Shown in pieces: positions 1-46,422 of a stretch of 64,000 nt of DNA. How positions within the stretch are numbered: the first letter of the stretch is position 1; each line of letters starts with the position of its first letter. This DNA is from a virus (Duplodnaviria > Caudoviricetes), in IMG/VR virus record IMGVR_UViG_2916441648_000002, positions 20,198 to 84,197 of that record; one strand, written 5' to 3'. The notes under the pieces are model-generated. The model saw nothing but the letters and a program-made list of their open reading frames with translations, was not told the DNA's origin and did no database searches. Position numbers and translations under genes: made by a program.

Positions 1-321
1 CTTCAGAGCCTCACTGTCAGGCTGGTTCATTGATGCTTCACGCGATGACTTACCTGAGTGGCACTCGATGCACAGCGTCCACAGGTTGCGCTCATCGTTT
101 TCACCGCCAAACTGCAGTGCTATTCGGTGGTCAAGCTCACTGTCATGAAGATCTACTACGCGTCCACACATGCAGCAATGGCCACCATCACGAACATATA
201 TCCTGCGCTTAAGGCCAACCCTTGCACTTCCACTTACTCGGCGGTTCTCGCCATATACAGGTTTAATGCGGCGGGTGTCGATAGCTTTAAGACGCGGCTT
301 CAGCGTCTTTAGTTTTCCCAT
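1..321 (-). CDS. HNH endonuclease, packaging-associated (3' end outside window)
   Basis: Manual translation from ATG at 321: MGKLKTLKPRLKAIDTRR...HCCMCGR...ELDHRIALQFGGENDERNLWTLCIECH; CxxC, DH-x-GG-N and CxxCH motifs; absent from the ORF track because there is no stop in the window. Confidence 0.85.
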   Translation of the reverse strand, partial: MGKLKTLKPRLKAIDTRRIKPVYGENRRVSGSARVGLKRRIYVRDGGHCCMCGRVVDLHDSELDHRIALQFGGENDERNLWTLCIECHSGKSSREASMNQPDSEALK

Positions 322-538
322 CGGTTGCTCCAGAATCTTTTATATCCTTTAATGCCCTCACCGCAGGCCGAGACATGACGATGCTTTGACACGCATGGAT
401 AGCCTGACAAAACTCTATGCGCTCATTGGGGTGTTCTACGGGAAGTTTTAGATATAGGTTCCAGGCTTCACCTAGCATCTGAGCTACATCTCTTTCTTCT
501 ACACTCAAATAACAAGGAATTGACTCTTCTTTAGACAT
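287..538 (-). CDS. Hypothetical phage protein (83 aa, MSKEESIPCYL...)
   Basis: GGAGG RBS before ATG 538; coupled to the upstream stop at 531-533 and overlapping the HNH start. Confidence 0.65.
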   Translation of the reverse strand: MSKEESIPCYLSVEERDVAQMLGEAWNLYLKLPVEHPNERIEFCQAIHACQSIVMSRPAVRALKDIKDSGATDGKTKDAEAAS

Positions 539-1124
539 GTAACCTCCATGCCTTGCGGCGTTCTGTTCTTGGTTGCTTATCTCTCGCAGGTTCAACAGGC
601 TTCCCATCAGCATGATCAACCAATGAATAACACGGGTAGATGACTGGTCCTCCGTGCGCATCACCCACGGCATAATCAGCAGCTTTACTGTGGCTCCATT
701 TATCCAACACTTTCTGGATATGCTTTGGTGGGACACAGTAGCAGACTCCGTGTATCAATCGCGTGAGCGTGATGAATTCAGCCCGAGACTTATCAGCAGC
801 GATAAGCTTCGATGCAATCTCAAGCTGATACTGAGGTGGCCTTCCTGTACCGAGATAGAAGCTGATAAGTGAATCTGGGTAGCGCTCAATCCAGTCGTAA
901 ACAGAAGAGATAAATCCTTCCACTGGCAGAGCATCATCCTCTAACACAACAACGTGGCAGCCTTGCTCTTTTGCCCACTCAAGTGCGCGTCGATGGTTCC
1001 AGTTCGCGCCATGGTCTTCGTAGTCAATGAGCATGTGAGCATCGAGTATGCCGCATAGCTCCTTAGCTGCATCAATGCGCTTATGATGGCCAACCACAAC
1101 AAACTTCACTTGTGTTTCCACCAT
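531..1124 (-). CDS. Putative glycosyltransferase, GT25-like/GT-A (197 aa)
   Basis: VVVLEDDA motif like the GT25 xEDD motif; clear homolog at 43728-44318. Confidence 0.6.
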   Translation of the reverse strand: MVETQVKFVVVGHHKRIDAAKELCGILDAHMLIDYEDHGANWNHRRALEWAKEQGCHVVVLEDDALPVEGFISSVYDWIERYPDSLISFYLGTGRPPQYQLEIASKLIAADKSRAEFITLTRLIHGVCYCVPPKHIQKVLDKWSHSKAADYAVGDAHGGPVIYPCYSLVDHADGKPVEPARDKQPRTERRKAWRLHV

Positions 1125-2566
1125 GCCGCCTCCTTACCGATACCATCAGTCTTGAAAACGGTATGAACCATAGGGCCGGTGACCAGCCTGTCAGCGAATA
1201 ACTGCGCGACAATACCGAACGCCAGCATGTCACCCACCGCAGCGCCAGCCTGTTCTTTCTTCCAGAAACGATAACTCTCTATCCGGTAGTAAAGACGGAT
1301 GATGCCGTGAGCGAACGCCATTACATCAGTGCGGGTTCCACCCAGCAGACCAGCGTTAAGCATCACATCGCCGCGGTGCGTTTCAATGAATTCCTGATAG
1401 ATACGCTCAGGATGATTCTGTTTCGCCCAGGTGTCGGCGTAGGTCTTCGGTTCAGAACCGACGTATACAGTGCCGGGATGCATTTCTTCCCACGGTGCAC
1501 GGAGCATTTCTACATCGGTACCATCGGTACACCAGACGAACCGGTATTCAGGGTGATCGCGCAGGTGCTGCCAGATATGCAGCCAGCGACGGAAGTAGAC
1601 ATTCATCTTCACGTCAGAAACGCGATGCAGCTCAACGTCTGCCGGTGCCGTCTGAAGTTCATCCACCAGCGCGATACGGCCACAATTCCGAAGCGATGAG
1701 GCCCATTTAGACAGCATGTCAGGCGAGGCCGTCATTTTCGTGCCGCGCTGAGGGTCAGGCTGACTGGTCAGTAACGTAGTGATTACCACGTCGCGTTGCC
1801 GCCGGTACTCCACATAACCGGTAAACCCGGTATCGCGCCGTTCGTTGTGGATTTTAACGTTACGTTCCACCAGCGCCTGCCGGTCTGGTTTCGGTACCGA
1901 ACGCTCCACGGCCTCATGCTCATCGAGAGAATGAATCAGCTTTTCTGAACCGACGACGTCACCGTAAGCCCACGTCGTAAGACCAGCGTTATGGATGCGC
2001 AGGGCAAGGTCGCTGTGTTCGTACATGCCGCGACCGTAAACCGGATCGAAACCGCCAACCTTCTCGATAGCGCTACGGTGGTAATACAGCATCACGCCGC
2101 GCTGCCCGGTGTAAGCGATGTGCTTATCATCCCGGTACAGGACCGCCATATCCTTCAGCTTATTCGTCCCTGCCAGATCGAGAAACTGGTAAGCCAGGTG
2201 CGGTTCGGGTGATTCGATGTATGGAAGGTGCCAGTTATCAGCGATGGGCCAGGCGTCATCGTCCCAAAGGAAAAGATGCTCACACCCGGCGTCCATCAGC
2301 GCGGTTAAACTGGCGTTCTTCGAAGCAACAATGCCGAGTGATGTTTCATGGCGAAGCAGCTGCACGCCGTGGGGAACTACCGCTGCAGGCTTTGAGCCAT
2401 CGTCTATCACAACCACCAGCGCACCAGATGGAAGATGCTTCATGTGCTGCTCAATCGCGCGTAGTAACACTTCAGGACGATTATGAGTAGTGATTGCTAT
2501 CCCGATTCTGCTGGAGACTATGCTGGCAGGTTCATACTGAACACCATCAATTGTGACCTTCGGCAT
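1106..2566 (-). CDS. Two-domain glycosyltransferase: N-terminal GT2 plus C-terminal GT-A-like domain (486 aa)
   Basis: IAITTHNR, VVIDDGS and FLWDDD are GT2 motifs; C-terminal CTDGTDV and LNAGLLGG; start refined to MPKVTIDG; homolog at 44300-45757. Confidence 0.8.
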   Translation of the reverse strand: MPKVTIDGVQYEPASIVSSRIGIAITTHNRPEVLLRAIEQHMKHLPSGALVVVIDDGSKPAAVVPHGVQLLRHETSLGIVASKNASLTALMDAGCEHLFLWDDDAWPIADNWHLPYIESPEPHLAYQFLDLAGTNKLKDMAVLYRDDKHIAYTGQRGVMLYYHRSAIEKVGGFDPVYGRGMYEHSDLALRIHNAGLTTWAYGDVVGSEKLIHSLDEHEAVERSVPKPDRQALVERNVKIHNERRDTGFTGYVEYRRQRDVVITTLLTSQPDPQRGTKMTASPDMLSKWASSLRNCGRIALVDELQTAPADVELHRVSDVKMNVYFRRWLHIWQHLRDHPEYRFVWCTDGTDVEMLRAPWEEMHPGTVYVGSEPKTYADTWAKQNHPERIYQEFIETHRGDVMLNAGLLGGTRTDVMAFAHGIIRLYYRIESYRFWKKEQAGAAVGDMLAFGIVAQLFADRLVTGPMVHTVFKTDGIGKEAAWWKHK

Positions 2567-2641
2567 ATGTTGATCCTGCTCTTTTATGTTTTTAGTTTTC
2601 CAGATGATAAATTGATTGCTCAATCAACAAAGGGCATAAAA

Positions 2642-2989
2642 ATGGGTTTAAAAATTACAGGTTGCATCGTTCAGCACGTAGGAACCATTGTCAGGGCTCC
2701 AGAAGGTTTTGATATATCCATTGATTCATCATCACTTCATAACGTTGGGACAATTGCTGATATTTATGAGAAAAAATCAGAAATTTTAAAGGCTCTCGGT
2801 ATAGATACCAACACGCCGGAGGAAGTGCTGAAATCAGTTGTACAGGAGATGAGACACTCTCCTAACGAAACTGAAGAGAAACGTTTACAAATCGTGAAGA
2901 ACTCCAAGCTGATGGAATTCATATCGACTTCTGCAAACCTTGCAACCATCGCCACATTCATATTTGAGGTTTCAAAACTGGTTGTTTGA
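2642..2989 (+). CDS. AT-rich moron, hypothetical protein (115 aa) antisense to the late operon
   Basis: ATG 2642 with purine-rich RBS; low GC; opposite strand to its neighbours. Confidence 0.65.
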   Translation: MGLKITGCIVQHVGTIVRAPEGFDISIDSSSLHNVGTIADIYEKKSEILKALGIDTNTPEEVLKSVVQEMRHSPNETEEKRLQIVKNSKLMEFISTSANLATIATFIFEVSKLVV

Positions 2990-3060
2990 GAAAAGTTGCA
3001 CGCCCCTTTCACACCCATTACGAAGTTATTCTTCTTTAATGGGGGTGAAAGGTTCAGTAG

Positions 3061-3336
3061 TTAACTTCCAGATTCAACTCCAAACAGAAGCAGGGCTTCT
3101 TCCGACTCTTTGATAGCTTTAGTCGTTCTGGCCACCAGCCCGCTTTCAGATGTTACCCGGCTTAACTGGTTAACGAAGATTTGATACTTCAGCGGATCGT
3201 CACCAACAAACTTAATCGCGTCTGCAGCGGCGGCAGTGTCGTAGTTCAAGTTCTGCAGCAGGTTTAAGCGGATTTGCTGGGCAGGTGTTACCGTGATTTC
3301 AGCCATTGCTGTTCCTCTGTATGGGGTGATTGGCAT
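3061..3336 (-). CDS. Hypothetical phage protein (likely starts at MAEITVTPAQ)
   Basis: Open ORF on the late strand between lysis and GT genes. Confidence 0.6.
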   Translation of the reverse strand: MPITPYRGTAMAEITVTPAQQIRLNLLQNLNYDTAAAADAIKFVGDDPLKYQIFVNQLSRVTSESGLVARTTKAIKESEEALLLFGVESGS

Positions 3337-3768: not shown

Positions 3769-4005
3769 CTATCCGTCAGCAAAAGAAACACCGAGGTCGA
3801 TGATGACTTTTTTCTGTTCCTCAATACGACGTTCAAGCTCTGCTACCGCATGAGGGCGGATTGCCTCTTCAAAGGCAGCATCCTGATATGCTGACTGGAT
3901 AGTCACACCGAGACCACCTCCGCCAGCGATGAGATCGCGCTGTTTTTGCAGTTCTCGAATGTTTTCCCAGATGCTATAGGCACGACTTAAGTCCTGAACT
4001 TTCAT
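3769..4005 (-). CDS. Hypothetical protein (78 aa, MKVQDLSRAY...)
   Basis: Follows the o-spanin, AGAGAG RBS. Confidence 0.6.
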   Translation of the reverse strand: MKVQDLSRAYSIWENIRELQKQRDLIAGGGGLGVTIQSAYQDAAFEEAIRPHAVAELERRIEEQKKVIIDLGVSFADG

Positions 4006-4071
4006 CTGTGTCTCTCTTTTGGGTGGGTATGGAAATATCCCCGCTATTGAATGTGAACACAGCAGCATGCT

Positions 4072-4287
4072 TCACTCCTGTTTCTGGCAGTTCGCCTGCC
4101 ACGCTTTGTTATGCGCCAGGATGTCTTTCTTCGTCTGGCGGTCCATAACGTCGATGTCGTGATCCGTCAGGTAGATTGGACTTACCCATTCGCAGGCAGT
4201 ATCAACTACCACCGGGACGCTTCCACGATTCGCGCAGCTCGCGGTTAACATCGTCATCAGGCATACGGCTAATAGTCTGCTGAACAT
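4072..4287 (-). CDS. o-spanin (Rz1-like lipoprotein)
   Basis: Lipobox LTASC; overlaps the i-spanin 3' end in another frame. Confidence 0.75.
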   Translation of the reverse strand: MFSRLLAVCLMTMLTASCANRGSVPVVVDTACEWVSPIYLTDHDIDVMDRQTKKDILAHNKAWQANCQKQE

Positions 4288-4477
4288 TCCTTGCCTCCTT
4301 AATGACTTCTACGCAGCGTTCTGCTGAAGCTTTCATTGCTGCGGCCTTTTCTTCTGTGCGCTGCTGGTCTGCTTTCGCTTCCGCTTTGCTGGTGCCGCGT
4401 GAATGCCCAATGCCAAAAGCACCAGCGATAGCCGCCATTATCAGGGCAGCAATACCGACGATTGTTTCTAATCCCAT
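4202..4477 (-). CDS. i-spanin (Rz-like)
   Basis: N-terminal TM helix plus coiled coil, directly after the endolysin. Confidence 0.75.
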   Translation of the reverse strand: MGLETIVGIAALIMAAIAGAFGIGHSRGTSKAEAKADQQRTEEKAAAMKASAERCVEVIKEARNVQQTISRMPDDDVNRELRESWKRPGGS

Positions 4478-4484
4478 ATCAACC

Positions 4485-5111
4485 TCACACCAGTACCGTT
4501 TTGGCCTGCCCGAAGCGAGCGCGACGATCTTCCAGTCCGTTCGTGCCGCCGTTGATAATCTTCGTCACCTGCATCAGGTCGCCGGAATACTTCAGGCATC
4601 CCTTAGTAGCAAAGAACCACGCTGCGCTTCTGGCTGCATAAACATCTTCGGCCAACAGTTCAGGCTGCTTAACCAAATCAACCTTCAAGCCGTTCCCACA
4701 ATCACGGTAGTTATTGAGGCCGGTAATCTGGATAAGTCCACGCCCACGGTACAACCAGCCGTCGCCGGGAGCGTTGTTCCCCATGCGTTTGCTGTATACC
4801 AGGTTAGCGATAGCTCGCTGCCGTTCAATGGGTAATGTTCGTTCTTCAGGGCGGCGTCCAAGCGCGTTTGCCTGATCAGTAGTGATGCGGCCTGCTCGGA
4901 TGAAGTTAACAAGGCCAGCAATGCGATAGTTGAAGCTCTCCACCAGCAGAATGAACCCAGCTGATTCATGCCCTGCCTGAGCAATGAACATTGCCTGATC
5001 TACCGGATTGGTGATGCCAAACTCTTTCATCGCATCACTGACTGGCTGAAACCAGCGCACAGCTAATTCGGCGCTTAACCCAGCCGCCTTTTGAAATTGT
5101 GATTGGTTCAT
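4485..5111 (-). CDS. Endolysin, glycoside hydrolase family 19
   Basis: [20 protein letters not shown] and [11 protein letters not shown] are GH19 motifs. Confidence 0.9.
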   Translation of the reverse strand: MNQSQFQKAAGLSAELAVRWFQPVSDAMKEFGITNPVDQAMFIAQAGHESAGFILLVESFNYRIAGLVNFIRAGRITTDQANALGRRPEERTLPIERQRAIANLVYSKRMGNNAPGDGWLYRGRGLIQITGLNNYRDCGNGLKVDLVKQPELLAEDVYAARSAAWFFATKGCLKYSGDLMQVTKIINGGTNGLEDRRARFGQAKTVLV

Positions 5112-5392
5112 TAGTGCCTCAGTGCATCAACCAGACGCGCTACGTTTCCCCGAGCCCAGAGAACGGCAGCACAAATCAGGACGTTCACCAGCACCACAAA
5201 CCAGTGCGATTCATGGTACAGGCCGAACAGGTAACGGAAAGGGACGCTGGCATATACCAGCACCGTGAAATAAGCCATCAGCGATATCAGAGGGCGATGT
5301 CTCGCCCCACCGCGCTGGTAGAACATCAAAGCAATAACGATCACCGCACAGATAAGGGCGTTCACCATTGCTGTAGGATCACTTGCCACCAT
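5111..5392 (-). CDS. Holin-family membrane protein
   Basis: About three hydrophobic segments; stop overlaps the endolysin start. Confidence 0.75.
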   Translation of the reverse strand: MVASDPTAMVNALICAVIVIALMFYQRGGARHRPLISLMAYFTVLVYASVPFRYLFGLYHESHWFVVLVNVLICAAVLWARGNVARLVDALRH

Positions 5393-5774
5393 TGCTGGTC
5401 CCTCCACCACGTAAACGAGAGAGAATTCCAAACAGGCTACCCAGATCCTGACTGTTGACGAAAGTCAGCAGCTTAATTGCAATAGCAGCTACGATTACCG
5501 CGCCAAGCGCATCAAGCGGCCTGTCGCTATACCCCGTCCATTTGGAGAAGTAAGAGCCAAGCAGCGGTGCACCGATGACACCGAAGATAAATGAGGTGAT
5601 GAAGTAGCCCACCAGTTTAAGGCGGCTGATATTAACCGCCGTAGCGACGTAGAACACCGCACCAGCAAATGCGCCAAACACCACACCGTAATCAATTCCG
5701 GTTGCCAGGCCAAACATGCTGGCCCCCATCAGACCACCAGCAGCTACCGTAGTGCCAGAAACAGGATCGGACAT
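5379..5774 (-). CDS. Putative holin/antiholin membrane protein
   Basis: Multiple hydrophobic segments; first gene of the lysis cassette. Confidence 0.7.
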   Translation of the reverse strand: MSDPVSGTTVAAGGLMGASMFGLATGIDYGVVFGAFAGAVFYVATAVNISRLKLVGYFITSFIFGVIGAPLLGSYFSKWTGYSDRPLDALGAVIVAAIAIKLLTFVNSQDLGSLFGILSRLRGGGTSNGGK

Positions 5775-5973
5775 TTAGCCCCCTCTTATTGCCGTGAGTC
5801 CTCTCAGAACGAGGGGAAACAAAAAAGGCCGCCATTTGGCAGCCCTTAGAAACAACAAAACCCCGCCGTAGCGAGGTTTTTTATATTTTCTTTCTAACCG
5901 TGGACATACAAAGCCCATCGTTAGTGTCAAATTACATCAAAAACGGCAACATTGCAAGCATCGTGACGTTAAA

Positions 5974-6804
5974 TTACGCGATATCCGTCAAATTATCGTT
6001 TCGTGTTACTTTTTTCAGTTGGGTGTTTGAATAGCTCTCCTCCTGAAAGCAGCGAGAAACAAGCATTTCGTAGAATGGTTTCCAGCTGTAGCGCCAGGTG
6101 CGATCAGGAAGACTTGGCAGCTCAGAGAATATTCCCCGGTAAGCAACAGATGACTTTGGCCTGCTGTAACCGCGCCCTTCGCAGCGCTTGCATTCCTTAT
6201 AAACAGGTACGCCTTGCAGCTCAGTTGCTTTGCGGTCCAGTGTCTTACCTGTTCCTCCACACTGGCAGCGCTTACTTATTTTCCCGGTACCGTTGCATTT
6301 TGCGCAGAGTGATTGCTCAACGTTCTTCACCTCTCGTTTCTTTTCAAAAGATGATGGCGACTGTCCGAGGTCTTTTGCCCACTGAGGAATCCTCATTGTG
6401 TAATGGCTTTTGGTGACCGTACCGACTTTTTCAATTAGACCTTTACCGTTGCATTTTGGACAATCGGATAAATCAGCAGCTGACGATGCATAGTCGTTAT
6501 AGGCGAACTTGGCCATGATGAGCATACAGAGGGGAAATTTCTTACCTGCGAGACGGCGTACAGCAAAAGGCGCGGATTGCTTGGCATATTCAGCAAGCCA
6601 GTTTATTGAAGCTTCTCTGTCCTGCTTGCTGACTCTGGCCTTACCAAGATACATAGCAAGGCCAATTCCTGCGTCAGCCTGAGTCATACCCAGCGCAGCC
6701 ATAACATCAGTAACCGTCAGTTGTTCGCTGGCAGTAGCGCGAACACTATCGGAAATATGCATTCCTTTTGGGGCAAAGAATTTAACAACGTTATCGAGGT
6801 CCAT
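5974..6804 (-). CDS. Late antitermination protein Q (lambda/P22 type, zinc finger)
   Basis: LTVTDVMAALG, CPKCNGKG, CQCGGTG and CKRCEGRG; immediately upstream of lysis. Confidence 0.85.
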   Translation of the reverse strand: MDLDNVVKFFAPKGMHISDSVRATASEQLTVTDVMAALGMTQADAGIGLAMYLGKARVSKQDREASINWLAEYAKQSAPFAVRRLAGKKFPLCMLIMAKFAYNDYASSAADLSDCPKCNGKGLIEKVGTVTKSHYTMRIPQWAKDLGQSPSSFEKKREVKNVEQSLCAKCNGTGKISKRCQCGGTGKTLDRKATELQGVPVYKECKRCEGRGYSRPKSSVAYRGIFSELPSLPDRTWRYSWKPFYEMLVSRCFQEESYSNTQLKKVTRNDNLTDIA

Positions 6805-6816
6805 GAGCGTCTCCAC

Positions 6817-19797: not shown

Positions 19798-20976
19798 ATG
19801 GCCGCAAGACCACGTAAAAGGGAAAACCGCAATCTCCCTGACTTCCTGCTTTATGATAAAGCCACCGGACAATATCGCTTTACGCTTATAACCGGGAAAC
19901 GTAAAAGCATTGGAACTGATCGCGTAATGGCAATCGCCATTGCCAAAGAATATAACCTCAGAATGAGGCCTGAAACGGTCCCATCCGTTGAAAGTCTAAT
20001 CAGAGACTCAGGCGGACTTAATGGAGAAGCGCAACCATTCAGCCACCATGTTGATCGCATTATGGCGCGTGCCGTTGCCGATGAAAAACCATCACAAAGT
20101 ACCTTGGACGACTGGAATAATGACGCTATAAGGGTTAAGGAATTTTTTATCGACATCCCTGCTTGTGACATTGAGCTTGAGCATGTTAACCAGTTTATTA
20201 ACCGCTACCATGCTGATGCATCAGCTAACGTTCAAAACAGGAAAGTGAGCTTTCTAAAAAAACTGTTCTCTTATGCTGTTGACGAATCATTAATGATGGA
20301 TAACCCGGCAGCACGTAAAAAAATGCGCCGCGTTGAAGAGAAGAAGCGCAAGCGGCTCGCGCTGGATAACTTTATTGCTATTAGAAACGCAGCAGAACCA
20401 TGGTTAAGAACCGCAATGGACCTTGCCCTTCAAACGACACATGCTCGTCTCGAAGTTTCAAGAATAAAATATTCGATAAGAGAACCGAAGAACGGCGTTT
20501 GTGGATGTGTATGGTTAGACCAACCTGAAAACGGAATATACGGAACTTTGTACATTCACCGCCAGAAGGTGCAAAAGAAAGAAGCATCGCACGTAGCGAT
20601 CCCAATTGGAGAGGAATTGAAGAGGATTATTGACGATAGCCGGGATAGTGTTGCCAGTCCGTATGTTGTTCACCGGATACCAGAACGAAATAACAAGCGC
20701 AGTAAAGAGGTTTCGCACCCTACTCAGGTAGCGCCAGATTATCTTAGCCGTTCGTTCTCTGCACTGCGTGACAAACTTGGGTTGTGTGATCATCTTCCAA
20801 TGGATGAGCGTCCAACCTTTCATGAGATCAGGGCACTTGCCGCTCACTTGTTTGATAGCCAGGGTATCGACCCTCAGGGCAGGATGGCTCATAGTGATGC
20901 CAAATCAACGAAGATATATACCAGTAATCATATCGACTGGGTTATGGTTCCACATGGTGAGATCAAGGCAGGATAA
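19798..20976 (+). CDS. int: Tyrosine integrase
   Basis: Arm-binding N-terminus; AR, HEIR and AH...IY catalytic motifs; adjacent to att. Confidence 0.95.
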   Translation: MAARPRKRENRNLPDFLLYDKATGQYRFTLITGKRKSIGTDRVMAIAIAKEYNLRMRPETVPSVESLIRDSGGLNGEAQPFSHHVDRIMARAVADEKPSQSTLDDWNNDAIRVKEFFIDIPACDIELEHVNQFINRYHADASANVQNRKVSFLKKLFSYAVDESLMMDNPAARKKMRRVEEKKRKRLALDNFIAIRNAAEPWLRTAMDLALQTTHARLEVSRIKYSIREPKNGVCGCVWLDQPENGIYGTLYIHRQKVQKKEASHVAIPIGEELKRIIDDSRDSVASPYVVHRIPERNNKRSKEVSHPTQVAPDYLSRSFSALRDKLGLCDHLPMDERPTFHEIRALAAHLFDSQGIDPQGRMAHSDAKSTKIYTSNHIDWVMVPHGEIKAG

Positions 20977-21109
20977 CCAATGGCGAAACCACACCTTAAG
21001 TCATTGATGTGTATAGTGCAGATAATGCGTAAATTTCACTGTTTGCTTATACAGTCGAATGATGTGCAAGCCAGTAATGGCGCGGCTTAGAGGCATTTTA
21101 CACAGGTGA

Positions 21110-21198
21110 CATGGGGTGTCGGGGGTCGGAGGTTCAAATCCTCTCGTGCCGACCAAAAATACTCTTTAAACCAGCCAGCTATGGCTGGTTTTTTTATT
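21110..21198 (+). repeat. att junction between the prophages (attP-like): 3' half of tRNA-Pro(GGG) plus terminator
   Basis: CATGGGGTGTCGGGGGTCGGAGGTTCAAATCCTCTCGTGCCGACCA matches the proL 3' half; 89-bp block identical to 63531-63619; no tRNA 5' half. Confidence 0.92.
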
Positions 21199-21213
21199 TA
21201 TGTAAAATCAAAA

Positions 21214-21241
21214 TGGTGAAACTGTGGTGAAAAGGTGGTTA
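21214..21241. promoter_or_regulatory. Putative integrase arm-type sites (TGGTGAAA repeats)
   Basis: TGGTGAAA at 21214 and 21225; similar TGGCGAAA at 20981 in the other arm; absent right of 63619. Confidence 0.45.
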
Positions 21242-21250
21242 AACCGCTCC

Positions 21251-21571
21251 TTAAATTGCCGGACAGTTATCATTAACAACTCTGTTTAGGCTGTGTGTAA
21301 GCACCCCAAAAACCTCAACCCCATCTAGCGCGTCACCTTCTATTGATTCCCCATCTTCAGTTATCAATGCCTCACCGTAGAGCTTCGCGAACTCGTTACT
21401 GTTATCGATTCTTACAAGTAACGTATCCCCTTGCTCTGGCTTCAATGCAACGTTAATTACAGCCCATCCGCTTGACGTTTCAATTACCCGGCAGTTTCCA
21501 TCAATCCCGCATAGAAGGTCGATAGTTAATCTTTGTTCCTGATAGTCCATGGCAGGTGAAGGAAAGCCCAT
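21251..21571 (-). CDS. HumD-like, pre-cleaved UmuD' homolog
   Basis: Starts MGFPSPAMDY, at the Gly after the UmuD cleavage site; lacks the GDSM serine; ends VFGVLTH...DNCPAI as in phage P1 HumD. Confidence 0.75.
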   Translation of the reverse strand: MGFPSPAMDYQEQRLTIDLLCGIDGNCRVIETSSGWAVINVALKPEQGDTLLVRIDNSNEFAKLYGEALITEDGESIEGDALDGVEVFGVLTHSLNRVVNDNCPAI

Positions 21572-34947: not shown

Positions 34948-35391
34948 TCAGGAGCCAGACTCGATATTTTCAGGCTTACCTTTCAGACGCAGGGAGAACG
35001 TTGCCGCCACTACGCCGTTGGTACCTGAAGACCAGGTGTGCTGGCGGATTTCAGCCAGGAACTTAAAGCCCTTGCCGGAAGGGAAGATTACCTGGAAAGC
35101 GTAGGTCGTATCGTTGTCATACGCATCACGCAAGGCGTCCTGCGCCGGATTCTTGTAGAAGTTTCCGGACAGAGAGATTTCTGACGGAGAAGGCAGGCCG
35201 TTAATGTTCTCCTGCTCGGTCGAGCAAAGCGTTGTTACGTCGATATCCTGCTTCTGACCACCGGTGAACTGAATTTCTTTGATGGTGCAACTCAAATCGA
35301 GGAAGGTTGCGGAGTCCATCGTTTCTTTGGTGGCTGGCAAGGAGGAAATAAGGATCTTCGTCAGCTGCGATTTTTCATAAAGTGCAGACAT
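34948..35391 (-). CDS. Major tail tube protein
   Basis: IDVTTLCSTEQENINGL motif; position in tail operon. Confidence 0.85.
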   Translation of the reverse strand: MSALYEKSQLTKILISSLPATKETMDSATFLDLSCTIKEIQFTGGQKQDIDVTTLCSTEQENINGLPSPSEISLSGNFYKNPAQDALRDAYDNDTTYAFQVIFPSGKGFKFLAEIRQHTWSSGTNGVVAATFSLRLKGKPENIESGS

Positions 35392-36957: not shown

Positions 36958-38166
36958 TTAGCTACCAGCACCGGACAGGTCGCCCCAGACAAATGCTTCT
37001 GGACGGTATACCGCCAGCGCCGCACGCTCTTCGCAACGAATCGAGATCATGTTTTTCTCGAAATCGTCGGCGTTCTCGGTTGAAATAACCACGTTGGCTT
37101 CTTCACGGTCGAACAGTTGCGCACCAGCATTAAATGCGCCCGTAAGGAACTTACCGATAAACTGCGCGGTCTCAGTCGCCACCACTGGCAGCGCCCACAA
37201 TGTCGGCGTAGTGAGCTGCGCCGGGTTCGCCAGGATGTAACGACCAAGCTCATCTTTGGTCAGCTCAATTTTGGCCCAGTCGATGAAGTGCAGCACATGT
37301 CCTGATGCAGGGAAGCGCGCCAGTTGCGCCTGAAGCATCGCCAGACGCAGGCGGTCAATACCTGTTTCACGCTCTACCGCAAATGCCGGATTAAACGCCG
37401 TCGCCTGCGGAATGATGCCCTTCAGATGTGCGCCGGTGCCGTCGCCGAATAGAATTTCCTGCTCTTCAGCATATTTCAGGCCGTAGCGCATCTCAGCGTC
37501 GATAGTTGACTGAAGCTGTGCAAAATCGTCCAAGATCTGTTTGGATGCTTTGAACATGTGCGCAATGGTGCGCACGGGCGTTGTTTCTTCAGCGAACTCA
37601 ATTTCACTGTAAGGTTTGGTGGTATTTTCCGGAACAGCAGCGGCGTTATTAGTGAATCCTGTCTGTTTCACGTAATAAATGGTGTTGGACTGCGTGCGGC
37701 CCGGGGAGATAAGGTCACGGATGAACAGACGCTGCTTTGGTGTAGTGTCGATACCGGGCAGGCGCTGCGGAGCGACAATGGTTCCACCTACATCCACTGT
37801 GGTCAGTGCCGCCTTAACAGGCACGGCAATACGTTTATTACCTTCTAGGCTTGAGCGAATGTCTTTCATCATGTCAGCAGAAACTACCTGCTGACCGACG
37901 GACTGAATAACTTCCTTTGCGGCATTCAGCGGCATATTTGCCACATGCTGCTCAAGCTCCCCCAGGGAAGCGGCCAACGTTTTATGCGCACCGTTAAGGG
38001 CATTAAATTCGGTAGCAATTTTATCCACCGACTCTTTGGTTTCTGCGGAAAGCTTGCCTGAGGCCTGAGCCTCGTTAATCGCTTTTTCCGCCTTCTGGCT
38101 GAATTCACCAGATACTTCTTCCAGCTTCGCAGAAACTTTTTTCAGCAATTCGTTTACATCAGACAT
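36958..38166 (-). CDS. Major capsid protein (HK97 fold)
   Basis: 402 aa; coiled-coil delta domain; EEQEILFGDGTG; FEKNMISIRCEER. Confidence 0.92.
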   Translation of the reverse strand: MSDVNELLKKVSAKLEEVSGEFSQKAEKAINEAQASGKLSAETKESVDKIATEFNALNGAHKTLAASLGELEQHVANMPLNAAKEVIQSVGQQVVSADMMKDIRSSLEGNKRIAVPVKAALTTVDVGGTIVAPQRLPGIDTTPKQRLFIRDLISPGRTQSNTIYYVKQTGFTNNAAAVPENTTKPYSEIEFAEETTPVRTIAHMFKASKQILDDFAQLQSTIDAEMRYGLKYAEEQEILFGDGTGAHLKGIIPQATAFNPAFAVERETGIDRLRLAMLQAQLARFPASGHVLHFIDWAKIELTKDELGRYILANPAQLTTPTLWALPVVATETAQFIGKFLTGAFNAGAQLFDREEANVVISTENADDFEKNMISIRCEERAALAVYRPEAFVWGDLSGAGS

Positions 38167-39037: not shown

Positions 39038-40342
39038 CTAAGCGGCCTGTTTCAGCGGAGATTGTTCAAAGGAAATGTCAGGGAATATGTGGTTATGCAA
39101 TTCTCTCAAGGCCAGAGCCTGAACAGCAGGATTGCTGCTTTCGAGATTTTTCAGTTGCGTCAGGTTGAGCTGAACGGTGTAAATGTCGCCCCCTTCAATC
39201 GGTGGCATATTTTCAAGGCGACGCACGTCATTGCGGGACATCCACCCATTCTGGAGCGCGCTGGTATAGTACGCAGCACGACCGGCACTATCGGCACGCA
39301 GCAGTCCTTCTACGGAGAACTCCGCGAATACCTCATCATCGCTGTCCAGCAGGCACCGTCCAATTTCCTGTTCGATGTTCACCAGCAGGGGACGCAGGGT
39401 ATGCGTCAGGAACTGGAGGTTCATGCCCTCCAGACTGGATGCCCAGCTGCTTTGCTTCGTGGTATGACCGACCATGAAAGGTGGAACGCGAAACCAGCGA
39501 CAGATTTCCTCAATACTGAAAGAGCGGCTTTCCAGCATCTGGGCGTCTTCCGGATTCATGGTGACGCCCTGATACTTCAATCCGCCTTCAAGTACCATTA
39601 TTTTCCCGGCGTTTTTTGAGCCGGTAAATGCAGCCATGTAGCTGCGAAGTCTTTCACGTTGTTCGTCAGACAGCGCATTATCAGCGGAGAGAAAACCTGA
39701 ACTCTGAAGCCCCTGTTCAAATATCTTTGCAGCAGACTCCTCAACCGCCATTGCAGAACCGAACACATCCCGGCCTGTTTTCATCGGCATCATGCCGCAA
39801 ACACCGTCCAGACCAAACCCGCGAATGTGCATGATGTTTTTGACGGGAATGACGCGCTCGTTACCATTTTCAGTGTATTTGTATTCCAGCGCCCCGGTAG
39901 TGAGACGTTTAACCACCATGTTCTGCGGAAGCAAAGGCACCAGCGAAACCAGGCGGTTTGCGATGAATTTCTTCTCAATGAAGGCGTTCCCGCGCAGGCA
40001 AATACTGGCGACAACCATCAACATAAAGCGTGATGGTGTCATTTCTAAATTGGGTCGTCGGCACAGTATCGAATAGGCCGGATGATCGGTTGCTGCTTTA
40101 CGCGAACCGTCAGGCTGTCGAACGTATATTTTCAGCGGAAGGGTTGAAATAGACTCGCTTAACAGTCTTACGCATGCCCACACAGCAGATAGCTGGATGG
40201 CTTTATCGGCCGTGACCACCTTTCCGCTACTGCTGGTGCCAAACCATTCCTCCCAGAACGTGCCGGTAGTCAGGCTGATAGGCACCCCAAGCCAGTTAAG
40301 CAGAGCGCTTTTCACCCTGCCTGGCTGTTTGTTTTTTTTCAT
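39038..40342 (-). CDS. Portal protein (HK97 family)
   Basis: LSAVWACVRLLSE; EEICRWFRVPP. Confidence 0.92.
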   Translation of the reverse strand: MKKNKQPGRVKSALLNWLGVPISLTTGTFWEEWFGTSSSGKVVTADKAIQLSAVWACVRLLSESISTLPLKIYVRQPDGSRKAATDHPAYSILCRRPNLEMTPSRFMLMVVASICLRGNAFIEKKFIANRLVSLVPLLPQNMVVKRLTTGALEYKYTENGNERVIPVKNIMHIRGFGLDGVCGMMPMKTGRDVFGSAMAVEESAAKIFEQGLQSSGFLSADNALSDEQRERLRSYMAAFTGSKNAGKIMVLEGGLKYQGVTMNPEDAQMLESRSFSIEEICRWFRVPPFMVGHTTKQSSWASSLEGMNLQFLTHTLRPLLVNIEQEIGRCLLDSDDEVFAEFSVEGLLRADSAGRAAYYTSALQNGWMSRNDVRRLENMPPIEGGDIYTVQLNLTQLKNLESSNPAVQALALRELHNHIFPDISFEQSPLKQAA

Positions 40343-42078
40343 CAGAAACCTACCATGATGGGATTATTGAAGAATCCGGAGAGATCCTGCTGGTCGTTGC
40401 CGCCGTTAACCAGAACGCGGCTCATTGCTGTGAACAATGCCGCCGGGCCATCAATCTTGGCCTCTGGTGTGGACTTGTTCGGGAAAATGTTCTCGTTCCG
40501 GTCAGGTTTGACGGTTACGTTGGACATCATCCAGTTCATTACCGGGTGATCGCTGTGATGGAAGCGGCCACCGTATACCAGTGCTTCGACCTCTTTCATC
40601 GCCTCAGAGAAATTGCGAACCGTCTGCGGCACTTCCACCAGCGGCAGCCCTTCTTCTGCCAGCGCAAGGCTGAACTGCGTCGCACTCCACGGGTCGAAGC
40701 CAATTTCTTTCAGACTCTCGCCAGCAACCCACACCTGCAGCTCTTCCTTAATCTGAGCATGGTCGATTACATCCCCGTCGGTAAGGATCAGCTTGTCCAT
40801 CTCGGCCCACTTACGATAGAGCTCTGCCATCTGGCGGGAACACTTCTCAAGGCGTCCCTCCGGCAGCCAGAATTTAAAATCCGCATGAACGTGGCCACCT
40901 GGCGCGCGCCAGACTTTAGCGGCTGCACAGATATCAATTTTGTTTGAAAGGTCAACGCCCACCCAGGAGGGATAGGTTTTAAGTTCGTGCTGCGGGGCGA
41001 TAAACTCGCATTTTTCCCATTTCATCATGTCCATCCAGGCAGACTCAGCGGTAACCCAGATATTCATGTGTTTGGTGAAAAAGTTAATCCTGGCCGAAAC
41101 CTGCTCTTTCGCCTTTTTAGCCAGGCGGCGCAGGTCATCCCAACGCTTACAGATACCCAGCCCCGGATTCGCCTTCTGCCAGACTTTTTCATCGAAGGGA
41201 TCGTCACCTTCATCTAAGGTGTAGATGATGGCAAAAAACGTATCGTCTTTAACCAGGCCGCGCAGGACCTTGATTGCGTAATCGCGTAGTTCGTAACAGA
41301 TACCTTCTTTGTTGAAGCCGGCGGTGGTGATACCGAAAAGCAGAGATTGCAGGCGCGCGCCGGTGGCCGTCTCAAGAACGTCCCAGACGTCACGGGTTTT
41401 ATGAGCATGCAGCTCGTCGACGATGGCGCAATGAATGTTCAGGCCGTCGAGGTTGTTCGCATCTGATGATAAAGGCTCGAATTTGGAGGCCGTTTGCTCT
41501 TGGTAGATAGCGAGCTTGTTGAATTCGAAAATCCGCCCAAGAGTGGCTTTCGCCTTCTTGACCATATTTTTCGCGTCTTCAAAAACAATTCGCGCCTGGT
41601 CACGGGTGGTTGCAGCGGAATAAACCTCCGCTCCGCCTTCGCCGTCTGCGCCAGCCATATAAAGCCCCACACCGGAGCAAAGCGTTGATTTGGCATTTTT
41701 ACGGGCCACCTCAACATCTGCTGTACGGAAACGCCGAACCATCACCGGCCGACCGCTGCCGTCGTTACGCAGGACGGTTTCTCCCGTTTCTTCGTTAACC
41801 AGTGGGATAACAAAACCAAAAATATTAATCAGGATAAAAACATGCCAGTCCATCAGCTCGATAGGCTGGCCTGCCAGCGCGCCTTTTACGTGAGGCACAA
41901 AATTATAGAAATTCAGAATGTGCTGCGCGCGCGGCTCACTGAAGAAAATACCGCGCTCTTCGCCATGTGCCAGATCGTCAAGAAAACGCTGGCAGGCAAG
42001 GCGCACATACTCACAGGCAATAATTTCCCCCGCCACCACCCTCTCGGCGTAGCGGATGCCTTCTGCAACCTTAGCCAT
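40342..42078 (-). CDS. Terminase large subunit
   Basis: VARKNAKST Walker A, IVDELH Walker B, KIDG nuclease motif. Confidence 0.95.
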   Translation of the reverse strand: MAKVAEGIRYAERVVAGEIIACEYVRLACQRFLDDLAHGEERGIFFSEPRAQHILNFYNFVPHVKGALAGQPIELMDWHVFILINIFGFVIPLVNEETGETVLRNDGSGRPVMVRRFRTADVEVARKNAKSTLCSGVGLYMAGADGEGGAEVYSAATTRDQARIVFEDAKNMVKKAKATLGRIFEFNKLAIYQEQTASKFEPLSSDANNLDGLNIHCAIVDELHAHKTRDVWDVLETATGARLQSLLFGITTAGFNKEGICYELRDYAIKVLRGLVKDDTFFAIIYTLDEGDDPFDEKVWQKANPGLGICKRWDDLRRLAKKAKEQVSARINFFTKHMNIWVTAESAWMDMMKWEKCEFIAPQHELKTYPSWVGVDLSNKIDICAAAKVWRAPGGHVHADFKFWLPEGRLEKCSRQMAELYRKWAEMDKLILTDGDVIDHAQIKEELQVWVAGESLKEIGFDPWSATQFSLALAEEGLPLVEVPQTVRNFSEAMKEVEALVYGGRFHHSDHPVMNWMMSNVTVKPDRNENIFPNKSTPEAKIDGPAALFTAMSRVLVNGGNDQQDLSGFFNNPIMVGF

Positions 42079-42551
42079 TAATCCCTCGCATTCATAAACT
42101 CGGTCAGCGGATCAACCGCATCAGGACCTTTGGCATTAACCTTAGAACGGCTGGCTGGCGTCATGCCAAACTCACCGAGCATGGCGCGCAGACGTTTCCA
42201 GGCATCAGCTTTCATGATGGCCGCCGGGTGAGCCTTTATCAGCACATCCCCGCTCTGCGTTTCGGTCCGGTAGGTGTAGCCCTCAACTTCAAGCGTGTCG
42301 CAGTGATGCCGGTATTCGGTATAAGCCTCAACAAGCAGCTCAAGGGCTCTGGCGTCCAGCTGAGACATCACACCGATAGCATCAAGCTCGTCGGCCATCC
42401 GTTTAAACCAGTATTTCCCCTGCTTATCGAAATGCTTCGGCGTTGGGGGTACCCCTGAAGGGGGTTTTGGTTCGTTCTCATTGATCGGGCGCTTTGATGG
42501 GTTACCCCTCACCAAACGTAGATGGGTCGGGGTTTTCGGTGGTCCAGACAT
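42078..42551 (-). CDS. Terminase small subunit (P27 family)
   Basis: GPPKTPT..L.RGNPSKR; EFGMTPASR. Confidence 0.92.
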   Translation of the reverse strand: MSGPPKTPTHLRLVRGNPSKRPINENEPKPPSGVPPTPKHFDKQGKYWFKRMADELDAIGVMSQLDARALELLVEAYTEYRHHCDTLEVEGYTYRTETQSGDVLIKAHPAAIMKADAWKRLRAMLGEFGMTPASRSKVNAKGPDAVDPLTEFMNARD

Positions 42552-42706: not shown

Positions 42707-43357
42707 TCATTTAACCGACTCATGCACGATTTTCGCCAGTTTCCGGCTCGGGGGACCACTGTTACCAATGCGAGGGCTGAACACCTTACTGATGTCCCAG
42801 CCTGCCTTCAGTCGATACTCAATGGAGTTTCTCGAAATACCCAGGTAATCCGCCCATTCGTTAAGACACATCGTCTTGCCGTGAGCGGTATATCTGCGGT
42901 CGGAGTTCTCTCGCATTGTCTTTCTCATCTTGTCTACGCCTCGCTTCTGATTGCACACAGGGCAACTTGGCACAAGATTGTCAGGCTCGTTATTGGTCTT
43001 ACAGTCATCGAGGTGGTCGATGTGAAGGGTGTCCCAGCCAACGGTTTTTGCACACCAGTGACAACGGAACGGTCCAGCCCCATGTTTGTCGTAATAGACT
43101 TTCCGGTGCTCGTAAACACGAGGACTCCCACATGCCAAAGGATGATCGGGCGCATACACCAGCAGATATCCGCCAGTGTGCTCCAGCTTGCCATCCTTTC
43201 TTGTGCTGAGCTTCTCTGTCGTTCCATGACGCCGGACGCGCATGTAATGCTTTTCACAGTAGTGGCTGTTACGGGATCGTACCGATAATTCGCATCCATC
43301 CACAATGCAGGCAGCATGGGCGTGCGGAAGCCCTGAACCATGTTTCGATTCAGTCAT
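42707..43357 (-). CDS. Homing-type HNH endonuclease with C-terminal HTH
   Basis: EHRKVY...CHWC...HIDHLDDCKTNNEPDNLVPSCPVCN; C-terminal LNEWADYLGIS. Confidence 0.8.
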   Translation of the reverse strand: MTESKHGSGLPHAHAACIVDGCELSVRSRNSHYCEKHYMRVRRHGTTEKLSTRKDGKLEHTGGYLLVYAPDHPLACGSPRVYEHRKVYYDKHGAGPFRCHWCAKTVGWDTLHIDHLDDCKTNNEPDNLVPSCPVCNQKRGVDKMRKTMRENSDRRYTAHGKTMCLNEWADYLGISRNSIEYRLKAGWDISKVFSPRIGNSGPPSRKLAKIVHESVK

Positions 43358-43371
43358 CTTCACCTCGTTAC

Positions 43372-43728
43372 TTAATTTCTGTTCAGGCGCTCGCGTGCTG
43401 TCTTAGCTTTATGGCAGCCGCGGCAAATTGATTCCAGATTAGAAAGATCGTCAGTGCCACCGTGAGCTTTCGGCTTTATGTGGTCCACCGTCTCAGCGGG
43501 TGTATACCTTCCATTTCGCAGGCATTCCTGACAAAGGTGTTTATCTCTGTCGAGAACGATTGGACGCAGCCTGTCCCACTTGCTGCCATAACCTCGCTGA
43601 TGCCTGCTCTGTCCTCGCTGATGCTGCTGCCAGCCTTCGTTAAGGTGCTGGGGACAATAGCCTGAGCGGTCTGTGGTTGTGCCAGGACAGCCACGCTTGC
43701 GGCATGCTCTCGGTATTAACGCAGGCAT
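43372..43728 (-). CDS. HNH endonuclease, HK97 gp74-like packaging factor
   Basis: RGYGSKW..LR...RD..LCQEC...VDHIKP...GG.DD.SNL..IC..CH. Confidence 0.9.
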   Translation of the reverse strand: MPALIPRACRKRGCPGTTTDRSGYCPQHLNEGWQQHQRGQSRHQRGYGSKWDRLRPIVLDRDKHLCQECLRNGRYTPAETVDHIKPKAHGGTDDLSNLESICRGCHKAKTARERLNRN

Positions 43729-44318
43729 CAGGCTAACCTCCACGCCACCCGGCGTTCTGTACGTGGCGCTGAGTCAGGGTGACGCTCAACCGGTTCACCA
43801 TCTGCATGGTCCACCAGCGAGTAACACGGATAAACCACAGCGCCGCCATAGGCATCACCAACGGCATAATCGGCAGGCTTGCTGCTGTCCCACCGAGCCA
43901 GCACACGTTCAATGTGTTGCTGTGGGACGCTGTAGCAGACACCGTGTATCAGTCGCGGCAGCGTGATGTAGTCAGCCTGAGTCTTATCAGCAACAATCAG
44001 CCGTTCGGCTATCGGCATTTGATACTGTGGCGGGCGGCCGGTACCGAGATAAAAGCTCACGAGCGCCTCGGGAAAACGAGCAAGCCACTCATCCATCAAT
44101 TCTGTAAAACCAGCAACTGGAAGCGCATCGTCCTCACACACCACTACCCGGCAAGGTTGCTCAGCAGCCCATTCGATAGCGCGACGATGATTCCAGTTCG
44201 CGCCGCGGTTACCGTCATCAATAAGCAGATGAGCATCCAGCAGCGAGGCAAGTCGTTGCGCATGACCTATGCGCGAGTGATGGCCAACCACAACAAACTT
44301 CACTTGTGTTTCCACCAT
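43728..44318 (-). CDS. Putative glycosyltransferase, GT25-like/GT-A (196 aa)
   Basis: VVVCEDDA; homolog of 531-1124; stop overlaps the HNH start. Confidence 0.6.
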   Translation of the reverse strand: MVETQVKFVVVGHHSRIGHAQRLASLLDAHLLIDDGNRGANWNHRRAIEWAAEQPCRVVVCEDDALPVAGFTELMDEWLARFPEALVSFYLGTGRPPQYQMPIAERLIVADKTQADYITLPRLIHGVCYSVPQQHIERVLARWDSSKPADYAVGDAYGGAVVYPCYSLVDHADGEPVERHPDSAPRTERRVAWRLA

Positions 44319-45768: not shown

Positions 45769-46422
45769 TCAGATTCCACGCCGTAAGGAAGTCCAGATCG
45801 CACCGCCTGGCTGCATAGCTTGTTGAATAATTTCGTCCACAACCTTTTTGATGGACTGCTGTAAGGCGGTCTCTAACGCGTTTTGGTGATTGGCGGCAAC
45901 CGCCAACTTTTCAGCCAAAATCTTCACGCGGCTTTTACCATCGTCAACATCGAGTGCCATGCCAGCTTCGTGCTGCTTACCCTTGTCGGTGACGTTCACG
46001 TTCAATTTCACGTTATAACCCGTAGACAATACGCCATCACCGATCAGCGCCTTATGGATGTAGGCTTGCCCTGATTTATCGACAAACCAGCCCCATTTAA
46101 AGTCTTCAATTGGGCAGTAGCTATTGATGCCGTCTCTTGGCTCATCTATAGGGCAGCCGATATAACCACCAGCGGGAACACCAAATCGAGTATTTGCCAG
46201 ATGCTTAATGGCAAACTCCTGCCCTTCAGCAGTCAGGAACGTGAAGAAGTTTTTCTCATGATATTTTGTAGCGGTATGGCGACTTTCAGCAAACCCCAGT
46301 TCTCGAAGCTCAGCTGCGCCAGATTTAGATGGCAGATCTCCACCAGTCAACGCACCACGAAAAAACAGCGCATAAAGAACATCCGTCGCAGCGCCGGACA
46401 ACGTAATGATTTTCTGACCCAT
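45769..46422 (-). CDS. Hypothetical protein with a tail-J (DUF1983)-like segment
   Basis: YNVKLNVNVTDKGKQHEAGMAL...ILAEKLAV resembles J YSIKVAVDSNGKQYAAGIGI...FLADRFAV. Confidence 0.6.
   Translation of the reverse strand: MGQKIITLSGAATDVLYALFFRGALTGGDLPSKSGAAELRELGFAESRHTATKYHEKNFFTFLTAEGQEFAIKHLANTRFGVPAGGYIGCPIDEPRDGINSYCPIEDFKWGWFVDKSGQAYIHKALIGDGVLSTGYNVKLNVNVTDKGKQHEAGMALDVDDGKSRVKILAEKLAVAANHQNALETALQQSIKKVVDEIIQQAMQPGGAIWTSLRRGI

Follow-up and report, generated by a model that had tools for sequence, protein, structure and literature searches.

Both HK97-like prophages in the DNA studied here carry a two-gene glycosyltransferase cassette that is predicted to act late, in the cytoplasm, by O-glycosylating the C-terminal serine of the phage's own virion subunits, the major capsid and tail-tube proteins. 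We give this reading a probability of roughly three in four. The window that we analyzed is the right-hand 64 kb (64,000 nucleotides) of the 84-kb IMG/VR provirus record IMGVR_UViG_2916441648_000002, a tandem double lysogen in which two different HK97-like prophages (A and B) lie head to tail; the virion genes of prophage A fall within the 20 kb before the window. An earlier note on this DNA had placed the same cassette in both prophages, at 531-2566 and 43728-45757 on the late (minus) strand, and our analysis confirmed these coordinates. Judged by homology, the cassette is orthologous to the system of the cluster F mycobacteriophages of the Che8 and Taj type. Gene 1 and gene 2 overlap by 19 nt in both cassettes, and copies A and B share 74% identity in gene 1 and 68% in gene 2. 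The four genes are as follows.

1106-2566, minus strand: cassette A gene 1, two-domain glycosyltransferase, 486 aa (ATG at 2566; phrog_1579, E 1e-252)
531-1124, minus strand: cassette A gene 2, minimal GT-A glycosyltransferase, 197 aa (phrog_854, E 4e-70)
44300-45757, minus strand: cassette B gene 1, two-domain glycosyltransferase, 485 aa (phrog_1579, E 6.5e-228)
43728-44318, minus strand: cassette B gene 2, minimal GT-A glycosyltransferase, 196 aa (phrog_854, E 4e-74)

Homology and synteny with mycobacteriophage virion glycosylation

The multi-glycosyltransferase cassettes of mycobacteriophages had been offered in the earlier note as an analogy; the relationship proved to be one of homology, seen between gene 2 and Che8 gp110, between gene 1 and Taj gp107, and in synteny. 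A tblastn search of 50,697 phage records with gene 1 matched 607, approximately 570 of them Mycobacterium phages. Gene 1 shared 43-45% identity with the cluster F mycobacteriophage glycosyltransferase (Taj gp107) over the full length (residues 1-486) among the cluster F phages listed, and BLASTP aligned gene 2 with Che8 gp110 at 34% identity over 191 aa (E 2e-26). BLASTP detected no relationship between gene 1 and Che8 gp108 or gp109, the two other transferases used by Che8, which makes the window cassette the Taj-type version.

The gene order is likewise shared. The right end of the Taj genome encodes gp107 (the two-domain glycosyltransferase), gp108 (small), gp109 ('glucosyltransferase', the gene 2 homolog) and gp110 (HNH), after which the genome ends, and the right end of Che8 encodes three transferases (gp108, gp109 and gp110) followed by gp111 and gp112 (HNH). 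A cos-proximal cassette directly upstream of the packaging HNH gene is common to the window prophages and to Che8 and Taj; they also share the order of two glycosyltransferases and HNH near cos and the terminase genes, and a ...Gly-Ser-COOH end on both capsid and tail tube.

One report counts Che8 gp110 among the glycosyltransferases that are essential if the capsid is to be glycosylated, and has the homologous Che8 enzyme acting on capsid and tail tube (PMC12363180). Two further papers state that the Che8 glycans are bound covalently to the capsid protein, with the genes near the 3' end of the genome (PMC11256854), and that the linkage of Che8-type virion glycans is O-linked (PMC13445384); all three cite Freeman et al. 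(2023; Cell Host Microbe 31:1216). The window phages differ from Che8 and Taj in being HK97-like lambdoid temperate phages of Gram-negative Enterobacteriaceae and in having Thr-Ser as well as Gly-Ser tails. To our knowledge, virion glycosylation has been shown experimentally for mycobacteriophages only. Freeman and colleagues reportedly placed the glycans on the C-terminal ends of capsid and tail-tube subunits, and are said to have found little evidence of glycosylation among phages at large.

C-terminal serine tails on capsid and tail-tube proteins

The same system would be expected to have same-looking substrates, and we therefore compared the C termini of capsid and tail-tube proteins. In Che8 and Taj the capsid ends ...NKTGS and the tail tube ...YSDGS. 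The corresponding ends are ...SGAGS and ...NIESGS in prophage B, and in prophage A the protease-capsid fusion ends ...STGSTS and the tail tube ...AQPTS. A GS or TS end is found in 10 of the 371 mechanically called open reading frames (ORFs) of at least 60 aa in the record, and four of these 10 are the capsid and tail-tube proteins of the two prophages. The predicted acceptors of prophage B lie in the window.

36958-38166, minus strand: major capsid protein, prophage B (phrog_10, E 7e-81); ends ...DLSGAGS-COOH; predicted acceptor
34948-35391, minus strand: major tail (tube) protein, prophage B (phrog_158, E 4e-59); ends ...NIESGS-COOH; predicted acceptor

We surveyed the acceptors among IMG/VR relatives of three capsid families in which the flank was long enough to score the cassette. 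With capsids of the prophage B type, all 40 cassette-bearing loci have the GS end, compared to none of the 17 cassette-free loci, in which the capsid ends ...TAPAAAA, ...TVPASGGQ and similar. On a tree of these capsids calculated without the last 16 residues, the cassette state switches three times and the tail switches at exactly the same three places; L195, which carries the cassette, branches within a group of cassette-free loci. With the prophage A capsid type, each of the 74 classifiable loci has both the cassette and a [GT]S end, and with the HK97 capsid type the GS end was present in 62/62 cassette-bearing loci. The capsid tail was found in every cassette-bearing phage examined (>170 loci, three capsid families).

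The tail tubes, which belong to at least four unrelated or distantly related families, have a [GT]S end in 96 of 99 cassette-bearing loci versus one of 14 cassette-free loci; within the HK97-type set the count is 54/56 cassette-bearing loci. Homologous tail tubes can differ just at the tail, ending ...GVVAGS with the cassette and ...GVVPKP without it. From these sequences, tail-tube tails appear to track the cassette closely. No clean split was found between gene 2 subtypes with respect to TS and GS tails, and TS tails occur with gene 2 variants of 66%-98% identity.

The capsid association, as discussed below, is one-sided. This one-sidedness, seen in HK97 and HK022-like phages, and the Thr-Ser ends found in prophage A are what the present analysis adds. 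The mechanism itself would be the one known from mycobacteriophages, which homology would extend to hosts of a further phylum and to phages of a model family, and to a Thr-Ser version of the tail.

Directly 5' of cassette A, the late operon encodes a 91-aa DUF2560/phrog_571 protein (3061-3336, minus strand) with a similar C terminus (...VESGS), which could make it one more acceptor or could be coincidental.

Predicted structures of the two glycosyltransferases

Over their whole lengths, gene 1 and gene 2 fall in the PHROGs families phrog_1579 'glycosyltransferase' and phrog_854 'glucosyltransferase', respectively. Gene 1 scored below the gathering cut-off (23.3 bits) of Pfam Glycos_transf_2 (PF00535), at 21.0 bits (P0001) and 16.2 bits (P0003), and a precomputed PF00535 match is present on some of its close homologs; by sequence comparison, gene 1 is a borderline, divergent relative of this family. 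An exhaustive HMMER search with gene 1 recovered 1,490 cluster representatives at E<=0.001, including 255 at E <1e-30, and most of the best 150 listed cover both domains.

The AlphaFold (AF2) model of gene 1 (99 diverse sequences) has a mean predicted local distance difference test score (pLDDT) of 96. The N domain (residues 15-251) best matched human GalNAc-T2 (VIA Z 18.4, root-mean-square deviation (rmsd) 3.6, 221 aligned), and GT2 enzymes scored within approximately 1.3 Z of it (WrtF, 17.1). For the C domain (residues 252-486) the best match was the GT6 enzyme alpha-1,3-galactosyltransferase (alpha-1,3-GalT; Z 16.8, rmsd 3.7, 210 aligned), which together with the blood-group transferases spans Z 16.4-16.8. 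The top whole-chain Foldseek matches of gene 1 were natural enzymes with two GT-A domains, namely heparosan synthase 2, K4 chondroitin polymerase, COLGALT1 and LH3. The gene 1 motifs are IDDGS (54-58), WDDD (101-104), TDGTDV (347-352) and LNAG (403-406), in which D55-D56, D102-D104, D348/D351 and N404/G406 are at least 90% conserved among 99 diverse homologs. On the predicted structure, gene 1 is a polypeptide GalNAc-transferase (ppGalNAc-T)/GT2-like GT-A domain joined to a GT6-like GT-A domain.

Gene 2 had no Pfam match at E up to 1, including to GT25 (Glyco_transf_25) and GT13. Its AF2 model (26 sequences, two phyla; pLDDT 89.6) matched three structures about equally well: Mimivirus R655 (VIA Z 13.7), GnT-I (13.4) and the catalytic GT25 domain of COLGALT1 (13.0). 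The EDDA motif stands at residues 62-65, and E62-D63-D64 are among 31 columns (these three and 28 more) that are invariant in an alignment of enterobacterial and actinobacterial phage sequences. Gene 2 is thus modelled as a minimal GT-A glycosyltransferase, a bare core of approximately 195 residues. Sequence comparison of both genes to PDB chains returned nothing useful, and NCBIfam gave only far sub-threshold matches for the cassette proteins.

What the earlier note had seen in the letters proved correct throughout. The motifs it quoted (DDGS, WDDD, TDGTDV, LNAG and EDDA) are present, all in invariant or nearly invariant columns of the cross-phylum alignments. The three GT-A domains that it proposed all fold as GT-A in the predicted structures, each a Rossmann-like alpha/beta/alpha fold whose central strand is followed by a conserved acidic DxD-type motif (D102-D104, D348/D351 and E62-D64). 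It had seen no transmembrane (TM) segment, and a hydrophobicity scan in 19-residue windows found nothing TM-like in the cassette proteins, the maximum Kyte-Doolittle value (1.61) belonging to a buried helix of a confident globular model. It had also seen no GtrA nearby, and GtrA (PF04138) had no match in the whole 84-kb record, with control genomes giving matches. Its domain likenesses held in part: the second domain of gene 1 is closest to GT6, with the suggested LH3 lower in the list, and the GT25 likeness of gene 2 stood through COLGALT1, tied with R655 and GT13. Three cytoplasmic GT-A active sites across the cassette is a fair description of the models.

The polypeptide GalNAc-transferases (GT27, human GalNAc-T2), the best match of the gene 1 N domain, are GT-A enzymes with a DxD-type motif that act on protein Ser/Thr; the identity is only 16%, GT2 enzymes score close, and gene 1 differs in being cytoplasmic and without a lectin domain. 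The GT6 enzymes (bovine a3GalT, GTA/GTB and BoGT6a) resemble the gene 1 C domain in having an Asp-rich motif (D348, D351) at the DxD position. This likeness is one of fold, at 7-14% identity, and the C domain had no sequence-family match. COLGALT1 (GT25), LH3/PLOD3, Mimivirus R655 and GnT-I/POMGnT1 (GT13) tied at the top for gene 2 (Z 12-13.7), which has E-D-D at the metal-binding position. Several members of this group act on proteins or protein-linked glycans; gene 2 differs in being a bare core of 9-16% identity to them and in having no Pfam GT25 or GT13 match.

Genomic context of the cassettes

On the minus strand of prophage A the order is Q, two hairpins, holins, endolysin, Rz, two small ORFs, a variable gap of approximately 490 nt, the cassette, an 83-aa ORF and HNH. 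The lysis and Q genes (4202-6816) were assigned by phrog_127, 198, 217, 181 and 1026. The position of cassette A downstream of Q, the holins, endolysin and Rz on the same strand would place it in the Q-dependent late transcript. Downstream of cassette B come HNH and another HNH-like ORF, then terS, terL and the genes for portal, protease, capsid, connectors and tail tube. The features are listed below.

5974-6816, minus strand: Q-like antiterminator, late operon A (PHROGs)
5824-5880: two strong terminator-like hairpins, late operon A
5111-5774, minus strand: two holins, late operon A (PHROGs)
4485-5111, minus strand: endolysin, late operon A (PHROGs)
4202-4477, minus strand: Rz-like spanin, late operon A (PHROGs)
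287-538, minus strand: 83-aa ORF of cassette A, between gene 2 and HNH (matches only phrog_13916)
1-321, minus strand: packaging-associated HNH endonuclease (HK97 gp74 type), prophage A (3' end open at the window start; CxxC...HH-type sequence)
43372-43743, minus strand: packaging-associated HNH endonuclease, prophage B (phrog_144, E 9e-42; overlaps the gene 2 end)
42078-42551, minus strand: terminase small subunit, prophage B (phrog_83, E 1e-53)
40342-42078, minus strand: terminase large subunit, prophage B (phrog_9, E 2e-186)

The coupled chain from the cassette to the packaging HNH gene, another claim of the earlier note, is present in both prophages. In A the link is the 83-aa ORF, whose ATG overlaps the gene 2 stop and whose end overlaps the HNH start at 321; this ORF had no match in Pfam or NCBIfam. 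In B the HNH ORF itself overlaps the end of gene 2. The gene at the position orthologous to the prophage A HNH is annotated HNH in mEp390 and ECP1. Four cultured phages (mEp390, HK542, ECP1 and ENT39118) have the same cassette in the same place, and in mEp390 and ECP1 the order, as in the window, is gene 1, gene 2, HNH, terS and terL.

The slot 5' of gene 1 is variable. In prophage B it holds a 217-aa protein of unknown function (45769-46422, minus strand; phrog_16910, weak Phage_Tail_Tip match), and in prophage A (2483-3060) approximately 490 nt without a convincing gene and with a weak promoter-like site at 2783-2811. Between the gp74-type HNH and terS of prophage B lies another ORF, HNH/endonuclease VII-like and 218 aa long (42707-43363, minus strand; phrog_4160/phrog_9443).

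Proposed mechanism

We propose that both genes would be transcribed late from a Q-dependent promoter, along with those for lysis, HNH, terminase and head; the position of the cassette and its translational coupling are observed, and late timing is predicted. The gene 2 product, with its invariant E-D-D metal/sugar-nucleotide motif, would recognize the free ...[Gly/Thr]-Ser-COOH of the major capsid and tail-tube subunits and transfer the first sugar onto the terminal serine, which makes it the proposed initiating protein O-glycosyltransferase. The two domains of the gene 1 product, ppGalNAc-T/GT2-like and GT6-like, with their conserved Asp-rich motifs, would then add sugars in two linkages to give a short glycan, and assembled virions would display hundreds of glycans on head and tail. 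Late glycosylation of capsid and tail proteins, as put forward in the earlier note, is the best-supported reading, a prediction resting on the GT-A folds, on homology and synteny, and on the matching C-terminal serine tails.

A broader proposal is tentative and, in our judgment, somewhat doubtful. The cassette may be a self-contained, host-independent cytoplasmic protein O-glycosylation system that moved between phages of Actinobacteria and Proteobacteria and that would require of its acceptor only a free C-terminal x-[Gly/Thr]-Ser-COOH.

Limits of the association and alternative readings

Several points weigh against glycosylation of the virion subunits. HK97 (L334, NC_002167) has neither glycosyltransferase gene, and yet its capsid protein gp5 (4028-5545) ends ...TFSSGS, identical to mEp390 and ECP1; five more complete HK97/HK022-like genomes (within L335-L343) lack both genes and have a capsid ending ...SSGS. 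Given these exceptions, the association may in part reflect linked modules being inherited together. Independent contrasts are few, with 3/3 for the capsid and approximately 4/5 for the tail tube in the expected direction and none in the opposite one, and neither is significant alone. Tail-less tail tubes occur in six cassette-bearing phages (L242, L273, L274, L398, L414 and G003). Late expression of the cassette is inferred from position only, and the weak promoter-like site at 2783-2811, in the variable gap directly 5' of gene 1, may allow expression in the lysogen. The whole case is built on sequence comparison and structural models, and the C-terminal attachment site in Che8 is the one that Freeman and colleagues reportedly found.

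Some of these points have a context. The cassette-free HK97/HK022-like phages have a tail tube without the tail (...TLTIS, ...VVTP), and a capsid tail without the cassette is expected after recent cassette loss or exchange of head modules in mosaic phages. On the sequences compared, the capsid association looks one-sided, in that the tail is necessary where the cassette is present and can persist without it. The Gly-Ser end of the HK97/HK022 capsid resembles an acceptor tail left without its enzyme, and HK97 can thus serve as a natural control. In cassette-bearing phages, some of the tail-less tail tubes have an additional Ig-like domain at the C terminus. The head-tail adaptor Ad1 of the HK97 type has the end ...EEGS with or without the cassette. 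In four oligo-dT RNA libraries, contigs of a related prophage extend across most of the late region; these may derive from DNA and are uninformative on timing or level.

The retention of the GS capsid tail in HK97/HK022-like phages, where the tail exists without the enzyme, also suits a different reading, according to which the enzymes act on another phage or host protein, for example to block defence or superinfection, and the serine tails are inherited baggage. The ESGS end of the DUF2560 protein near cassette A and the cassette-independent EEGS end of Ad1 point the same way. Three observations argue against it: the capsid tail is present in all of the >170 cassette-bearing loci of the three capsid families, the tail-tube tails of at least four families switch with the cassette, and the homologous Che8 enzyme is reported to act on capsid and tail tube (PMC12363180). 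A different protein target is not needed to explain the data and we regard it as unlikely.

Lysogenic conversion appears less likely still. Here the soluble transferases would modify lipopolysaccharide core, O-antigen or another envelope glycan at the cytoplasmic face, expressed moron-like from their own promoter, for which the weak site at 2783-2811 could serve. Both families are classed by PHROGs as 'moron, auxiliary metabolic gene and host takeover', and in lambdoid phages the slot between lysis and packaging genes is known to receive morons. Against this, the cassette proteins have no TM segment, the 84-kb record has no GtrA-like flippase or other envelope gene, and the translation of gene 2 is coupled through to the packaging HNH. 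The cassette moreover recurs in phages of Mycobacterium, a host with a wholly different envelope, and the tails of the virion proteins co-vary with it.

Glycosylation of phage DNA, giving hypermodified bases that counter restriction, was an alternative in the earlier note that gained no support and that we consider very improbable. The cassette adjoins the packaging genes, and phage enzymes that glucosylate DNA form an established class, but the T4 alpha- and beta-glucosyltransferases have the GT-B fold and each of the three cassette domains has GT-A. No gene of a hydroxymethyl-pyrimidine or other modified-base pathway was found in PHROGs and Pfam scans, which covered mainly late and virion ORFs and left the early regions, its expected place, unscanned. 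The closest characterized homolog acts on protein (PMC12363180).

That the genes are decaying or inactive passengers is just as improbable, with nothing specific in its favor apart from the rarity of the cassette in E. coli (9/5,426 complete genomes), and against it stand two intact copies, catalytic-type motifs that are invariant over hundreds of homologs in two phyla, and a single 90%-identity cluster with 4,655 member sequences.

Distribution, significance and other phage systems

The gene 1 and gene 2 families each comprise well over a thousand 90%-identity clusters, among them the one of 4,655 members. The named hosts of cassette clusters are Enterobacter, Klebsiella, Citrobacter, Cronobacter, Salmonella and E. 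coli. The serotype-converting gtrABC cassettes are likewise phage-borne glycosyltransferase genes of temperate phages in the same hosts, but they encode membrane proteins, lie beside att and modify O-antigen via bactoprenol, unlike the window cassette, which has no TM segment or GtrA and occupies a late-operon position. In the literature we found no report of glycosylation by mEp390, HK542, ECP1 or HK97-like phages, nor of any Gram-negative phage by this system; one study glycostained ten unrelated phages without signal and mentioned no glycosyltransferase gene.

The same enzymes, gene order and acceptor tail in HK97-like phages of Enterobacteriaceae bring the system to one of the best-studied capsid models. 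Since mEp390, HK542 and ECP1 plate on E. coli K-12, the prediction of virion subunit glycosylation is testable within days. Mycobacteriophage virion glycans shield particles from antibodies. If the prediction is true, glycan coats on gut phages would matter for how antibodies recognize the particles and how these are cleared during phage therapy against Klebsiella and Enterobacter, for the interaction of phages with mucus, and for reading capsid masses and cryo-electron microscopy data; the system could also provide a very small tag for glycosylating cytoplasmic proteins in E. coli. If the more doubtful, broader proposal holds, many gut prophages of Enterobacter, Klebsiella, Citrobacter and Cronobacter would release sugar-coated virions, HK97 (capsid SSGS, no cassette) would become glycosylated once both genes are supplied in trans, and the two-residue tail could be a portable glyco-tag in E. 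coli.

Other observations in the prophages and their relatives

Each prophage ends in an integrase gene (19798-20976 and 62219-63397), and early-region blocks are near-identical between the two (noted at window 19798-21571 and 62219-63397). The head order of prophage A is unusual (L250 13492-19581, minus strand): terL is followed by the 645-aa protease-capsid fusion (phrog_617), the portal (445 aa) and a 300-aa protein matching portal C-terminal families.

Neither cassette of the window is interrupted; many relatives have 0.5-1.3 kb inserted between gene 1 and gene 2, as in mEp390 (L001, 1296-1808) and in IMG/VR loci such as L167 (3974-4520). The mEp390 insert is annotated as an HNH endonuclease similar to the one of mycobacteriophage Corndog, and the junction between the two genes looks like a homing-endonuclease target.

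A full-length gene 1 homolog with 54% identity is encoded at 4001-5449 of Serratia phage KpSz_1 (L165, MN871448), an unannotated 299-kb jumbo phage genome that is marked unverified, suggesting that the gene 1 family is not confined to small temperate siphoviruses.

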